A stretch of 60,028 nucleotides of DNA, counting the filler, from Globobulimina sp. (taxonomy: Eukaryota), in NCBI GenBank assembly GCA_003354225.1. It is 12 parts of 12 records of this genome, joined end to end, with 100 filler letters (N's around TTAATTAATTAA, not from the genome) between each part and the next. Parts side by side here need not be neighbours in the genome. Positions count along the whole stretch, not along the records: positions 45,112 to 50,018 come from PIVH01000852.1; 11 more parts are not named here. One strand, given 5' to 3'. Below are positions 18-50,018 of this stretch, piece by piece. Below the pieces are notes generated by a model. It was not told the DNA's origin. It was given only the letters and a program-made list of their open reading frames with translations, and did not search any database. Each line of letters starts with the position of its first letter. The first letter of the stretch is position 1. Position numbers and translations under genes: made by a program.

Positions 18-473
18 TTAATTTTTTGTTATACGGACAAAAGTCATAATGCATAAACAATTTAATTTATTAAATATATCATTTGTACATCCCAAATGTC
101 CTTGACAACCACCTTCTTTTAAGGCAACAGACTGTTCTGGTTCTTCATAGTTTGCTTCTTCAAATAAAAAACTCCATGAAATGTTAACGGACGATATTGT
201 TGATGGTAATTTTTTAATTTTAAATATATATCCAGATGTATCAGGTTGTTGGGGATGTGATCTAATAATATCACAGAAAAATACCACATCACCAACACCA
301 TATCTTTCTTGTTCATCCGGATAATTTGACAACAGAGAGACATCTAAATATGTATCATCACTATTAACATCATCAAGTTGTAATTCTAAAATAATGCCTC
401 CCTCTCCAAATTGCGCAGCCACTGCTAAACTCAGAGTGGTACTGATTGGACACTTGAAATATGGCTTAAATCC
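18..473 (-). pseudogene. Truncated ADP-ribosyltransferase (R-S-E / ARTC-like) domain fragment
   Basis: The open frame from 473 reads GFKPYFKCPISTTLSLAVAAQFGEGGIILEL...YLDVSLLSNYPDEQER, showing the STS-like (STT) strand and the E-x-E (EQE) catalytic motif. An in-frame TGA lies immediately upstream (474-476) and no ATG or upstream R-motif exon is evident. Confidence 0.55.
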
Positions 474-809
474 TCATTTGAAATATTATTATTATTAAAG
501 ATATTGATGACAGAGAAAGGATTAAATTACGATAAAATGGGCTGGAGAACAAATGGTAAATAATAATTAATTACAATTATAATAGTAAAACATGATGATA
601 TGAATATGATGCGTTTAATGAAGAAACAGAGCAATTGCAATCTACGGATGAGTCAGAGTCTCAATCGTCAGATTTGGCGTTTCATGTTTAAACTATACTT
701 TGTTTGTTTTTTTGTTTAGAAAAAGTGTTTTCATACAAAACTCTTGAAAGCATCCTTTCGTTGATCAGAGTCAGACTGTGTTTGTTGGGCCAAGAGTGCA
801 CTTTGAATA

Positions 810-3800: not shown

Positions 3801-4917
3801 CGGGGTATGCATAGAAAGTGTGTTCAAATACGCGAATCTATGCAGCAATTCCTGGCCCGCCGAGCGGTTAACCTTTTCCTTGCCCTTTGACGATGCCATG
3901 CAAATGGGGCAAGCCTTGACCATGTTGTTACGGAAAGAGATGGCGAAGACGGATGGCATGGCACCCTCGCATGAGCTGGATCTGATTGGCAGACTGCATT
4001 GGGGCGGCGAGCAAGCATTGCAATACGTAATCGATGCCTGTCAGGGCAAAAGCGATGGTTTGCATTTGGGTTTAGCGAATTTTGCCTTTACGTACAAAGT
4101 GGAAGAGGGCATTGGCAGCGATGAACACAAAGCTTGTACCGAGAGTATGATGAATGTGACCAAGAACCTGTCGTATGAAGGCAAGGTAGGCTTTGCGGCT
4201 TTGCGTGGACTGCAATGTGTGTCGTTTGAGGCGGACGAATTATTCAAACAAGTGAGCACATTGAAGGACGCAGATGGCTCTGATTGGCTGTTTCATCGAC
4301 ATTATGGGCAATATTTGTTAGTGATAAAGCATGATTACAGCGCGGCGTGCAAAGCATTGGAAAACGCGTATAAATCGAATGCGAGGAAAGACCCAATGAC
4401 TGTGGGGTGGTACATGGCTGCTTTGAGCAAATGCAACGTAAATAATAATAATACTGCCGTTATGGAGCGGATATTTGACGAAATTGGCAAATACCACCAA
4501 GGCAACACGGATGCAGCGGTGATTCGCGCCGAGTTTCTACACGATTTCGACATCAAAACACCTGATTTGTATGACAGTTTATGCAAATCGGGGCCGACGG
4601 CCTTTATGCAAGCACGTAAACTAATATGCACCGCCAAATACGAGCGCGCCGCCATTGGGGCGGACATCAACAGTTTGTGCAAAGCCATCAAACCCAGCAA
4701 AAGCAACAACAAATTGTACCGCATATTGACTGCGTACTTCGCGAGCCAGGCACAGTACATTTACAACAACAGTTTGCGGCAATGCATCGAAGGTATGACC
4801 AAAGCAGGCACCATTTCTATGGATTGGACGCTGGGCAATGCGTTGACGGCCTATTGTTTCGCAAAGAAAAATGATTGGGAGTCGGCCATGAATTCGATAG
4901 ACCCGATTCCCACCAAA
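810..4917 (+). CDS. Large TPR/alpha-solenoid protein, multi-exon, 3' partial
   Basis: ORFs 810, 1436, 2114, 2845, 3026 and 3682 join in frame via GT-AG introns at 1405-1460, 2052-2075, 2820-2869, about 3067-3107 (uncertain) and about 3637-3694. TPR-like helices include ALTGDLYVKMRQFDKARTALSRA, AMLALADIYICGGKWQAALLLMQQA and YDKAIDCAKKIIRLDEKHPLGHALLAR. Confidence 0.7.
1435..1458 (+). repeat. (ATTGAC)4 microsatellite at the 3' end of intron 1 of the TPR gene
   Basis: attgac x4 directly precedes the AG acceptor at 1459-1460. Confidence 0.9.
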
Positions 4918-45011: not shown

Positions 45012-46105
45012 NNNNNNNNNNNNNNNNNNNNNNNNNNNNNNNNNNNNNNNNNNNNTTAATTAATTAANNNNNNNNNNNNNNNNNNNNNNNNNNNNNNNNN
45101 NNNNNNNNNNNAAATAAGTGAAACATAAACAAACAGATTGGATAAATGAATATGCTAAAACTTGAGGGTGTATTGATAATAAATTCATATATTGTTTTTA
45201 TTGGATTTGTGACTTAGTAACTAATTGCGTCGAACATAATGTAGAATTTCTAACGCAAATACAGTACCAAAAATTAGTACAAAAATGTTTGATAATAAAT
45301 AAATGATATATTGTTTAAATTGTGGCCATAATGTAAATCAATCGATATTGAATTGCGACTGAGAAATAAGTGACACGGGTCACGGGTGATGAATTTAATT
45401 AGTTTTAATTACATAAATATGATATTAATCACTGCATCCATTCAATTGGGTAACGGATGTAAATATTGATGGACTGCGTGGTTGGTATTGTATCATTTGC
45501 CAGATACATAGTATCGTGTAAATTTTGAAATATGTTTTTTATTTTGATTTGAATTATCTGGATCTGGGCACCTTTTTTGCTGAACATAAGTGTGCATATC
45601 TGGGCACCTTTTGTAGTTGTGGCTGGCTGCATATCTGATTGCCTGGCTGTCTGACTGTCTGACGACATTATTAATCACTGTGATTTTAAATTGATAATCA
45701 TTTGTTTGTGTGTCTGTTTCCTCAATCATGCCATGTACTGCTCTCTGTAGATGTGAACAAAAGTCCTTACTTCAACAAAATCTTTTTTTAATCAGCAATT
45801 CAATGTCACCATCGAATGTGTTGAATGAATTATTGAATGGACCATATGCATTGAATAACATCTCAATTGCAAACATTATATGTCCACATAGCTCAATTAG
45901 AGCACTGTTTTAAACATGATACAGGTTTAAATCCTGTTGTGGACACTCTTGTGCTGCGGCACCATAGGTTTGTACATCTATTATGCACAACAAATATGTA
46001 TTAGACACGATCCAAATAAGACTGGCATTCATTTCATTTATTTTACAATTTTATATTGAATGGATTTGAATAGGAATTAATGGATATGATTGGGAATGAC
46101 TTGTA

Positions 46106-46320
46106 ATGAATGATAATGAATGGCATTCATACCCATTGCGCGTTGGTTAGAATTTGTGAGATGGTCTATTCATTGAATAAGCCCATATGTATACAACCAG
46201 TCAATCTTTGAATGGAACCAAATGACTTTGAATAGAATTGACTGACTGACTCAATATGAATGAATTTGAATGAAATATTGAATGACAGTCTGACTTTGAC
46301 TGACTTCTTGAATGCTTTTT
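46106..46320 (+). repeat. Left inverted repeat (visible part), built of TGAA(T)/TGAC sub-repeats
   Basis: Pairs with 49804-50018 at about 94% identity. Confidence 0.95.
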
Positions 46321-46390
46321 GAATGTTTTTTAATTAAAATAATGAAACATTTTGCAGCTAAGACAATGACAACTTAACGAAAGCGTTATT

Positions 46391-49300
46391 TCATCGGAAG
46401 TCATGATTAATCCATAATGGTTCATTTGTATAAACAATTGGTTCGAATAATTGCCAATGACCACAAATATCTGTATTTTGACAATTAATTAATGGATTTG
46501 CAATACATTGATTACATTTGCAATCTAATCGACGGCGATATATTTTTGAGAGAGATATAATATTAAACTGAAAGTATTTAGTGATATTTTTCATCGCTGC
46601 ACAAAGGTCACCGCGTTTTATATGATTGACAGCTTTGCAATCAATATCAAAATATCTACGATGTTTGACAGACAAAGCATTATACCATTCATTAATAGAA
46701 ATTAATATATTTTGCAAATATCGAATTATTGTTTGCTCATAATTTTCATTGGAAGGATCATAAACAATTTTACCATCATTTACACCCTCACAAACTGCTG
46801 TTTTTATGTAACTACCGCATCCATCACATTTTGATTTGCCGTGCTCAGGACATGTAAATGTCCATATCAATGTATCTAAACCTAAACGTTTTTTTATTAT
46901 TGCTAAACCAACAAGAAATCCAATACAATTACATTCCCCGCGATCAGAATATCCATAGAAAGATGTAAGTTTATGATGAAGTACATCATCAAAATATATC
47001 TGCATATTTTTAATGTGCTGTTCTATAAAATAAAGAGTTGCGGGCCAGTCATGCTTTGGGTCAGATGAAAAATACGAGTATGCAGACTCAGCAGTAATTG
47101 GTTTGGATATATAATCTTTCTGGTCATCATTTTGTATGTATTCATCCATCAAATATCTGTTTATTGTACAAAGTAACGCAATTCCATCACGGTTTGACCA
47201 ATCCCCAGCTGTTCGTTTCTGTGATTGAGGTTTGATATTATTAATCCAATCAATATGACAATAAAGTGATCCTCGAGGTATATTTAATTGTGATTTATCA
47301 ACGAAGTCTCTTCGTGTACGGAAATTATTAATGTATGTAATATGATGCAGACAAAATTGACTATATTGTTTGATATATTTTTGAATGAAATCTGGCCATT
47401 TAAGACAATATGGTTTATTGCCAGTATCATGATTTTTTGAGTTTGGATTGTCATATTTCCCATACAGTGTGAAATGAATATCAATGTTTGATGGAACTCT
47501 CAGCAATGGACATAATTCTCCGCTAAATATTCGCTGCAAATACTTAGCTCCGCAATCAGGTTTATTACAATTGGCATTGATACAAGCAAAGTTTGGATAT
47601 AATGGATGATTATTTTGGCAACAAATGCGTTTGATAAACTTAGTGAGCGACAAACTAAATATGCCGTTGCTTATTGGACAGTTTACACAGTTTGAACAAC
47701 AACAAACTGAATCATTATTATGTTGTGGATAATTTGGACATTTATCAGTTCCACAGAAATGATATTTTTTGGACTTAATGTGAGTCAATAAAACTTTATG
47801 GATCATTTCCCAATTGCCATGTTTGGAACAGTGGCTGAAGTCTTTGTCATTATGTTTATAAATAAAACATGGTCGCCTGTTAAAAAACCATTGTTTGCAA
47901 GGAATGTCTTTGTTATGTGTCTGGCAGATTGTTTTTGTTGTTTTATGATGTTTCCAATCTTCATACACAGAGTCAAACGTTGTATAGCATATATGTTTTG
48001 GCTGTTTGTATTTTATTTTTTCAGCATTTTTCAATGTTCTTGTTTGACTAGGATTTGGATTTGGATGCGTGGAGTCTAACCAAAAAGACTCAGCCTGCTT
48101 ATATAAAGATGGAGGATAAAATGATTTAGTTGCTGTTTCAGTGGAAAATAGCAAATTATGAGGGTCACAGTTAAATGCTGTTTTGTATTTTTTAATTTTA
48201 AAATGTGAATTTGATTTAAAAGTTTTGGTGCATACATTATTCACAATGGTTTTATTTAAAATTTTATCAGAGACAGTTAACTTGGTGATGGCTGATAATA
48301 ATATTTGTTTTTGTATCATATGATTATGTGTGGTGAGAGATCTGATACTGTTTAAAACATTGGATATTTCATCTACAGTCTCAATCTGTTCACCCAGTGG
48401 ATATTGAGTCAAAGTTTTTGGTAAATACTGGTTGTTTGAAACAATGTTCAATATTTGTCTAATATTTTCTTCAGAACTTTGATATAATAAAATATTCGCA
48501 ATCTTGTTTGCTTTTTGTTGTTGCACTTCAGGGGAATCAATTTTCCTGAATTCAGGTGGTTTATATTCATCATCATCAAACGCTTTCCTCTGATATGTTT
48601 TGTAAAAGCGATTTTTAATGTCTGTATCTGTCAATTGACAATTTGAGGTCCGAATAAATGCTTCACATTTACTGTATATTTTCTTTTTTAAATATTTATT
48701 TTTATTCTCAAAAATGAATTGATACATTCTCTCTTCAAACCAATCATCTGCTGAATATGTAGATTGGTGATAGTTACCATGGTAGTCCTCACAACTAACA
48801 ATGTATATATTTAGTCATGTAATAAATTATAACGACAAACAAACAAACTAAACTACTCACCACCACTCAAGTTTTGTTTTGGTTTTTTATTTGGGGGTGG
48901 TAAAGTTTGCAACTTCGCCTCATCCGATGTTCTTTTTTTCTTATTTTTCTTTTCCTCTTTCTTCTTTTCAATATCAGCAATGATATCTTTTCTTGTGATG
49001 TCCCAAATCTTACTCACAACATCATCAATATCTACAATTCCTACACCTTTTAATTCCTCAATGCTCCGTATTCCATTTGATATTTTTCCACCAATAAATA
49101 CACTGCCCGATATTTGGAAATATGTCTGACTTTTCATACTAAATAAATTATTTTGTTCCAATACATTATATACATCCAATAATTTCTTCTTTAAATACTT
49201 GTTTTTCGCTGCAAATTTTATAGTTGTCCTATTGGTTCCGCCTTGTTCCAATACTGCTTTTAAAATAACCTTAAAACATATACATTTAACTCAGTCAGAT

Positions 49301-49585
49301 CTGTCTGATTCACAAAAAAAAACGTTTCTAACAAACCTGAAATTCATACTCAGTCAGATTTGCACTTTCAATGGTTTTGTCATACACTTTTGGGGGGATT
49401 TCTATTTCCTTTTGTTTTATTGGTGTTATTGGTTTGGTGGACGTTGTTGGTGTGGGAATAAGTGGCGCAGTTATTGCTTTTGTTGCGGGTGGTACAGATG
49501 TTGTAGACGTTGTATGTGATATCATAGTTTGTTGTTGTTGCTGTATATGTTGTTGCTGTATATGTTGTTGTTGAACTAAACACAT
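46391..49585 (-). CDS. Sola2-like DDD transposase, spliced, about 1000 aa
   Basis: Exons about 49585-49337, 49269-48861 and 48750-46391 join in frame via introns 49270-49336 and 48751-48860. Motifs: HCSKHGN, HIDWINN..QSQ....W, SSDPKHD, YSDRG, WTFTCPEHGKSKCDGCGSYIK, and C-terminal RRLDCKCNQC. The true start may be the ATG at 49755, which is in a different frame. Confidence 0.8.
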
Positions 49586-49803
49586 TTTGAAGCCGTTTGA
49601 GAAACCATCGTCATATCCACGTTGATATTGTGCGATGCTGATGTTATTGTATTTGTTGGTATATTTAATGGTGGTGGTATGGTGAAAGTGAATGGTTGAT
49701 TGTTGTTGTTATTATTAGTGTTGCTAGTGACTTGTTTAAAATTGTGTGTCGCCATATTGTCGCAAGTTGCGACTTGGTAAAAACAGCACTAACTTTCATC
49801 TAA

Positions 49804-50018
49804 AAAAACCATTCAAGAAGTCATTCAAAGTCAGACTGCGAATCAATATTTCATTCAAATTCATTCATATTGAGTCAGTCAGTCAATTCTATTCAAAGCC
49901 ATTTGTTTTCATTCAAAGATTGAATGGTTGTATACATATGGGCTTATTCAATGAATAGAGCATCCCATAAATTCTAACCAACGCGCAATGGGTATGAATG
50001 GCATTCATTATCATTCAT
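49804..50018 (-). repeat. Right inverted repeat (truncated by contig end)
   Basis: Reverse complement of 46106-46320. Confidence 0.95.

Follow-up and report, generated by a model that had tools for sequence, protein, structure and literature searches.

Mariner transposases and retroviral integrases cut and join DNA by a two-metal-ion reaction at an RNase H-like core, and in mariner the catalytic triad consists of three aspartates (DDD), with 34 residues between the second and the third. The transposases of Sola elements reportedly use a DDD triad, as Bao et al. are said to have described in 2009. Sola2 elements have already been reported in dictyostelid amoebae; according to PMC3627910, they are associated with 4-bp AT-rich duplications, carry terminal inverted repeats (TIRs) of 12-21 bp, and encode a transposase of 888 amino acids (aa). 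According to PMC5751038, the group has no Pfam model. The locus compared with these systems here lies at positions 46106-50018 of a stretch of Globobulimina sp. DNA, 60,028 bases in length, which was analysed as a whole and is called the window below. With a probability of roughly 0.8, this locus represents a copy of a cut-and-paste (class II) DNA transposon whose host is an AT-rich, intron-poor eukaryote and whose only gene has three exons and lies on the minus strand. The locus shows three of the features by which the TIR order of class II is recognised, namely an RNase H-like fold, a conserved acidic triad, and TIRs that frame the gene.

The ends of the element provide the first evidence. 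Two arms, at 46106-46320 on the 3' side of the gene and at 49804-50018 on its 5' side, are 215 nucleotides (nt) long, 94% complementary with 13 mismatches, and 3483 nt apart; in a BLAST comparison of the contig with the whole window, this pair (E 1.9e-91) is the sole repeat of the contig. The inverted repeats of at least 215 bp described in an earlier, sequence-only reading of the locus are thus borne out, as are the TGAA-type sub-repeats that were said to compose them. The left arm is rich in TGAATG and TGACTG sub-repeats, and 26 TGAATG/CATTCA hexamers are observed in the 4907-nt contig, compared with about 3 predicted from base composition; 20 of them fall in 46026-46320 or 49804-50018. Beyond the matched left arm there are hexamers at 46026, 46056/46057, and 46066, and the further TGAATG/TTGAAT/CATTCA copies at 46026-46105 may represent an outward continuation of this arm, uncertain as it is, whose counterpart would be located past the end of the contig at 50018. 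The right arm stops exactly at that contig end; consequently, 215 nt is a lower bound. The arrays of TGAATG-type sub-repeats are likely binding sites for the transposase. As the sequence-only reading had it, the arms enclose three minus-strand open reading frames (ORFs), at 49328-49708, 48853-49290, and 46391-48814, and the gene that contains them spans 46391-49755 within an inter-arm space of 46321-49803.

The second line of evidence is the fold of the main product. An AlphaFold model of the 807-aa product of exon 3 (P0001, whose residue numbers are used below), built from 101 aligned sequences, has a predicted local distance difference test score (pLDDT) of 83.4 and a predicted template-modelling score (pTM) of 0.72. 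Its strands (b) and helices (a) follow one another as b1 516-527, b2 545-561, b3 568-583, a 590-612, b4 618-623, a 631-643, b5 648-653, and a 662-679; in the model, residues 516-679 therefore have the RNase H order b1-b2-b3-a-b4-a-b5-a. A structural scan of 48,161 chains returned 16 at Z>=8, all of them aligned over residues 494-720. The top matches are retroviral integrase cores (Z 9.8-9.1), Metnase (Z 9.5), Mos1 (Z 9.0), and IstA (Z 8.4), and the alignments with Metnase and Mos1 cover 175-176 residues. The RNase H-like, DDD-type fold that the sequence-only reading had led one to expect was thus found, with Z values of 9.8-8.0 and a conserved triad. From the fold scan, the model, and the family alignment, the catalytic core can be placed at 46655-47335 on the minus strand.

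In the model, D522, D624, and D664 sit at the canonical triad positions: the first (codon 47249-47251, minus strand like the two that follow) on b1, the second (46943-46945) directly after b4, and the third (46823-46825) where the helix that follows b5 begins. Among the relatives that cover each column, the aspartate is conserved in 39 of 48, 70 of 79, and 63 of 67, respectively, and at the third position another 2 of the 67 have glutamate. The spacing is DD39D, that is, 39 residues between the second and third aspartates, and no insertion domain lies between them. The whole product consists of a low-complexity and basic N-terminal part (exons 1 and 2), a helical region, a Cys/His-rich module, the RNase H-like core, and a CxCxxC cluster. 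The module upstream of the core (residues 329-430; 47525-47830, minus strand) probably binds zinc; among aligned relatives, 25 of 27 keep its C329 and 22 of 28 keep its H332. The C-terminal CxCxxC...C..G.W cluster occupies residues 765-787 (46454-46522, minus strand). The motifs that had been picked out beforehand are all located in the 807-aa exon, where they sit at residues 329 (CSKH, the CxxH motif), 520 (HIDW), 622 (YSDR), 662 (KCDG), and 765 (CKCNQC, the CxCxxC motif).

The mechanism suggested by this model is ordinary cut-and-paste chemistry. Given the fold and the triad, the transposase would bind the sub-repeats in the arms and then pair both ends of the element; two metal ions would be held by the three aspartates, and the ends would be cut and joined to a new target.

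A HMMER search of 1.84 billion representatives places P0001 in a sizeable family, with 98 relative clusters at E<=1e-3, among which 56 reach E<=1e-10 and 18 reach E<=1e-30; the top-ranking relative shares 47% identity over 780 residues. When 20 relatives were looked up, none had an informative name and one was labelled 'hypothetical protein'. One of the 20 (P0061, EukProt) comes from the transcriptome of a foraminiferan, Bolivina argentea, and the others are unnamed proteins from metagenomes or assemblies. A word-based homologue search gave only three close proteins, none of them named. A pattern search with an alignment of seven close relatives found nothing in JGI metagenome contigs or in viral contigs, and one locus, L001, in genome contigs. 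The family is thus divergent and without a curated model, and standard annotation would miss it, given that it has neither a Pfam match nor, among the 20 relatives, an informative name. What is added here is a confidently folded, three-exon DDD transposase family that lacks a curated profile, and a profile made from the 101 sequences would help repeat annotators to detect the family in protist genomes.

L001 (PIVX01000082.1) is a contig of 4142 nt that is filed as part of a gammaproteobacterial metagenome-assembled genome. It is 47% identical to the window element in exon 3, and its inverted ends, 1-122 and 4021-4142, are 122 nt long and 99% alike, both reaching the ends of the contig. Exon 1 of L001 has an ATG start and the same GY..GF..GF motif as the window element. 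Intron 1 (793-910) shares the GTTTGT donor, and intron 2 (1438-1535) is in phase 2, with the donor GA/GTAA and the acceptor TTTAG/T (the slash marks the splice site). The spliced ORF is a single frame of 1157 aa, and one BLASTP alignment joins residues 63-1043 of the window product to residues 135-1138 of L001 at 40% identity. The two elements agree in the position and phase of both introns. L001 is a eukaryote-type spliced transposon from end to end and probably a foreign contig in a bacterial bin, and it provides an example of eukaryotic mobile elements in records filed as bacterial bins. A more distant relative, P0015 (27% identity), has a single frame of 1040 aa without interruption; a scan with it returned only its own contig of 3776 nt, which extends 76 nt after the ORF, and thus no element ends are visible. 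Upstream of the 1040-aa relative, at 22-510 of L024, lies a large nested palindrome with arms at 22-151/381-510 (85%) and 175-233/316-374 (86%). In seven of the 101 family members (P0005, P0007, P0039, and others), a PHD finger follows the CxCxxC cluster on its C-terminal side (best E 8.2e-09); the window protein ends before this position.

Comparison of the two elements also bears on how the gene is spliced. Exon 1 (49337-49755, minus strand, as are all parts of the gene) begins with an ATG at 49755-49753 and contains a low-complexity region rich in N, Q, and T together with the GY..GF..GF motif. Intron 1 was proposed in the sequence-only reading at 49270-49336, and this has been confirmed. 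Contigs of runs X2, X3, and X4, which come from two studies, have a 67-nt gap between positions 49266 and 49334, which can be moved by 3 nt to 49270-49336, where CT..AC on the plus strand corresponds to GT..AG on the minus strand and the intron reads GTTTGT..AAG. Exon 2 (48857-49269) ends in a basic, lysine-rich stretch and has a weak similarity to exon 2 of L001 (26% identity, E 6e-4); a model of its domain, based on an alignment of two sequences, has a pLDDT of 54, too poor for a fold search. The second intron of the sequence-only reading, 48751-48860 (GTGAGT..CAG), would keep the frame, but it removes the segment CEDYHGNYHQSTYSAD, which is conserved in the relatives P0004, P0013, P0026, P0061, and P0077, and it has no counterpart in L001. 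By comparison with L001, which matches in phase and position, intron 2 should instead be 48795-48856, 62 nt in phase 2 with the donor GA/GTAGTT at 48856 and the acceptor GTTAG/T at 48795. The main transposase exon, exon 3, is then 46391-48794, including the TGA stop at 46391-46393. Spliced in this way, the window element has 1062 codons from 49708, and its product would be about 1060-1080 aa long.

The two elements share a G-[YF]-x-x-G repeat in exon 1, QRGYDDGFSNGF and GYKRGHETGFNSGYASGHGVGFNSGF, at 49590-49640 (minus strand) of the window and 385-480 (plus strand) of L001; this region gives weak, sub-threshold matches to Yae1_N (E 0.041 and 0.23).

Several results weigh against the view that the locus is a transposon with a single three-exon gene. 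No transposase family of Pfam was matched by the 101 family members at E<=0.01 or by 10 tested members at E<=10; Pfam searches of P0001 at E<=1, and of P0002 and P0003, gave only sub-threshold noise, and the piggyBac, Tc1/mariner, hAT, MULE, PIF, CMC, KDZ, and rve-type models matched neither P0001 nor the 101 relatives. Sequence and profile searches of solved structures yielded no match, and Foldseek against the PDB alone gave 0 matches at E<=1e-3. Its weak rows (best E 7.8e-3), Argonaute PIWI, prokaryotic Argonaute (pAgo), prototype foamy virus (PFV) integrase, and UvrC, are all RNase H-like folds. The clustering of the three aspartates in space would follow from the topology of the model. 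In addition, BLAST of the contig against the window finds one copy only, and the L001 element is single-copy in its genome, in which no further copy of its TIR occurs. Because the right arm breaks off where the contig stops (50018), the true termini and any target-site duplication are beyond the reach of the contig, and mobility is therefore inferred. Finally, the record of splicing is mixed. Since the library type of X2-X4 is unrecorded, contigs without intron 1 are either complementary DNA or DNA that lacks the intron. Two of these contigs, one of X2 (862 nt) and one of X3 (469 nt), cross the proposed donor of intron 2 and stop at 48809 (47 nt past the donor) and 48825 (31 nt), respectively, a weak hint that some transcripts keep intron 2 and end at TAG. 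The splicing of intron 2 is thus a proposal from comparison, no spliced contig having been seen, and most of exon 3 is uncovered by the X2-X4 contigs, from which no inference is drawn.

To which superfamily such a transposase belongs is a separate matter. Membership in the Sola2 group is plausible, at something like even chances, on the basis of motifs. The order D-x-[IS]-N-N, S-D-x-x-H-D, Y-S-D, H-G-K-x3-D-G fits a putative Sola2 pattern that comes from a single source: the signature motifs around the three aspartates stand in the same order as in this pattern and in altered form, and the DDD triad is present. Likenesses also include a DDD-type transposase of roughly 900-1100 aa, an element of the eukaryotic TIR type, and AT-rich, amoeba-like hosts. 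A Pfam model is lacking here, as it is for Sola2 (PMC5751038). The sequence-only reading had Sola2 described mostly from animals, a statement that the dictyostelid elements (PMC3627910) do not support. If the link is real, the group would be widened in protists and a long-TIR form added to it; if it is not, the family would be a candidate for a new superfamily.

The alternative, that the element is as described above and its transposase belongs to a separate, unnamed lineage at the level of a superfamily rather than to Sola2, is possible and, in our estimate, somewhat unlikely. The lack of any Pfam match among the family members and the lack of an informative name among the 20 relatives are in keeping with it. 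In addition, none of these 20 is an annotated dictyostelid protein, although Sola2 has been reported from that group, and the TIRs of the window element, at least 215 bp with sub-repeats, differ from the 12-21 bp of the DFa and PPa elements (PMC3627910). The motifs themselves depart from the putative Sola2 pattern, as the sequence-only reading had already remarked: D-W-I-N-N is found here in place of D-F-S-E-N, and no G..Q-Y/F-K-N follows the second aspartate. However, the order of the motifs and the DDD triad do fit that pattern, and the closest look-alikes by language-model features are eukaryotic, mostly animal proteins of the DUF7869 (PF25273) type. In an unfiltered language-model search, the best three clusters score 0.96, 19 of the best 30 fall in the cluster set of the top match, only 12% of whose members carry DUF7869, and the other 11 have no family in common; among named clusters, all 30 carry DUF7869, with scores of 0.93-0.91. 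By HMMER, in contrast to this likeness, DUF7869 was matched by none of the 101 members at E<=0.01, by none of 10 at E<=10, and by neither P0001 nor L001. In the literature collection searched, no paper uses the name DUF7869 and nothing relevant appears for the Sola2 motif string; Majorek 2014 names Sola a single time and gives no motifs, and the Repbase paper contributes a classification alone. One DUF7869 cluster with an ISAzo13 domain raised a link to ISAzo13 (PF07592), which was rejected when profile A2 was compared with an alignment of seven bacterial ISAzo13 transposases (hhalign probability 0.2%); a literature search for ISAzo13 together with Sola gave nothing relevant.

Other known systems resemble the element in part. 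Its RNase H-like core is compact and free of an insertion domain, like those of mariner/Tc1 transposases (Mos1, Metnase) and retroviral integrases, its best structural matches (Z 9.8-9.0), and a short stretch of 39 residues separates its second and third acidic residues, as against 34 in mariner. The element shows no sequence similarity to these proteins and no Pfam match to DDE_1, DDE_3, Transposase_1, or rve; a large Cys/His-rich module precedes the core, a CxCxxC cluster follows it, and the protein is about three times longer. With piggyBac, a second large DDD superfamily, it shares the DDD triad and a C-terminal Cys-rich or PHD-like domain, as in the seven relatives with a PHD finger, whereas PF13843 is not matched and its second and third aspartates are not separated by an insertion domain. 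A further and rather doubtful reading combines several of these features. In this case, the family would be a non-Sola2 DDD lineage of protists, at superfamily level, in which a Cys/His zinc module lies upstream of a mariner-sized DD39D core and retention of intron 2 may serve to self-regulate the element. If so, relatives of the lineage would be those in the foraminiferan transcriptome and in many metagenome clusters. By analogy with the P element, a truncated N-terminal protein made when intron 2 is retained could act as a repressor.

Such a truncated product would follow from the sequence at the exon 2 boundary. An in-frame stop overlaps the donor of intron 2, GAG TAG (48853-48856) here and GAG TAA (1436-1441) in L001; therefore, retention of the intron would yield a protein of exons 1 and 2 only. 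It might also be supposed that exons 1-2 and exon 3 are two genes, a small spliced gene that ends at the TAG at 48853-48855 and a separate transposase ORF, and both this stop codon and the two contigs that read across the donor, without intron 1, to end 31-47 nt on would agree with that arrangement. It is nevertheless improbable. Both elements lack an ATG ahead of the conserved [DN][YF]HG...Y[ST].D.WF motif in the exon-3 frame, and exon 3 therefore needs upstream exons and is not fully translatable alone. In both, the frames are connected by a GT..AG intron with identical phase, giving the 1062 codons and the 1157 aa noted above, and contigs cannot show where transcripts end. Thus, the single three-exon gene remains preferred, and the claim of a spliced gene made in the sequence-only reading stands for intron 1 and has to be changed for intron 2.

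The copy in the window is itself not an intact gene. One base is missing from exon 1 next to 49649/49650, and the frame from the ATG at 49755 consequently stops at 49576-49578; the remainder of that exon, with the motif that L001 also has, lies in another frame. Contigs of X1 (a second, diverged copy), X2, and X4 have one extra T behind 49649, and with this T the frame from 49755 reads through to the donor of intron 1. The other indels in exon 1 among those contigs amount to 3 nt, 3 nt, and 1+1+10 = 12 nt in total; being multiples of three, they keep the frame, as expected of a coding region under selection. Thus, the window copy is frameshifted, or mis-assembled by one base, and is truncated on the right. 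In run X1, parts of the contig recur in diverged form: of 93 pieces aligned with the contig, 24 match it at 95-99%, 24 at 90-95%, and 22 at less than 90%. The description of the element as 'near-complete' remains fair in spite of the frameshift and the cut, and its overall anatomy was given correctly, apart from intron 2, the contig break at 50018, and the frameshift in exon 1, which had been overlooked. A TIR-bounded DNA transposon, as first proposed, is supported by the arms, the fold, and the triad, whereas the suggestion that it was 'recently active' finds no backing in a copy that is frameshifted in exon 1, with no insertion polymorphism or target-site duplication visible in the sequence available.

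These data also speak to the possibility that the protein is encoded by a host gene, or a domesticated one, flanked by chance by repeats that have nothing to do with it. Such a gene would be expected to fit the single copy in the window and the splicing of exons 1-2 in other runs; however, the coding region fills the inter-arm space, L001, at 47% identity, is framed by inverted ends of its own, the window copy is frameshifted, and diverged versions of contig parts are present in run X1, so that we regard a host gene as very improbable. Equally far-fetched is an origin of the inverted repeats by assembly or amplification, which the coincidence of the right arm with the contig end and the 99% alike arms of L001 at both of its contig ends might suggest, since the window arms, unlike those of fold-back chimeras, have 13 mismatches and are separated by 3483 nt, and an independent X1 assembly, which spans 46021-46162 and thereby crosses the outer boundary of the left arm, shows a single difference.

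The window is made of 12 pieces, sorted by length from 4917 down to 4903 bases, with GC contents of 0.30-0.43, which are joined by 11 N-TTAATTAATTAA-N linkers (0.08 expected by chance); these pieces are unlinked contigs, not one molecule. The element sits on the piece at 45112-50018, which has 4907 nt and a GC content of 0.318 and is followed by an N linker from 50019, and the neighbouring pieces are therefore unlinked to it. AT-rich pieces among them encode a Ras-family GTPase, a sugar transporter, a cytochrome P450, and a threonine synthase with THR4_C, all four in long frames without interruption, which fits an intron-poor eukaryote. A DUF4419 protein is also among the eukaryote-type products encoded by pieces of the window. 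Other pieces have packed ORFs at a gene density of bacterial style, and the record looks like a mixed bin.

Minor features were noted at the left flank of the element. The region 45604-46259, which comprises this flank and the arm, has a summed contig depth of 64-243 in run X1, as against 5-10 over the transposase exon, where depth of contigs is not to be read as copy number. The same region matches many other contigs, through repeats, a tRNA-like piece, and TCTGACTG arrays. The tRNA-like sequence lies at 45882-45945 (plus strand), 160 nt outside the left arm. It was detected with the Rfam tRNA model in permissive mode (45.9 bits, E 1e-07); ARAGORN reports no tRNA there, and an Rfam scan of the whole window with the default filter lists nothing. 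Sequences 79-80% similar to it are present on three G001 contigs, in two of them at the contig end.

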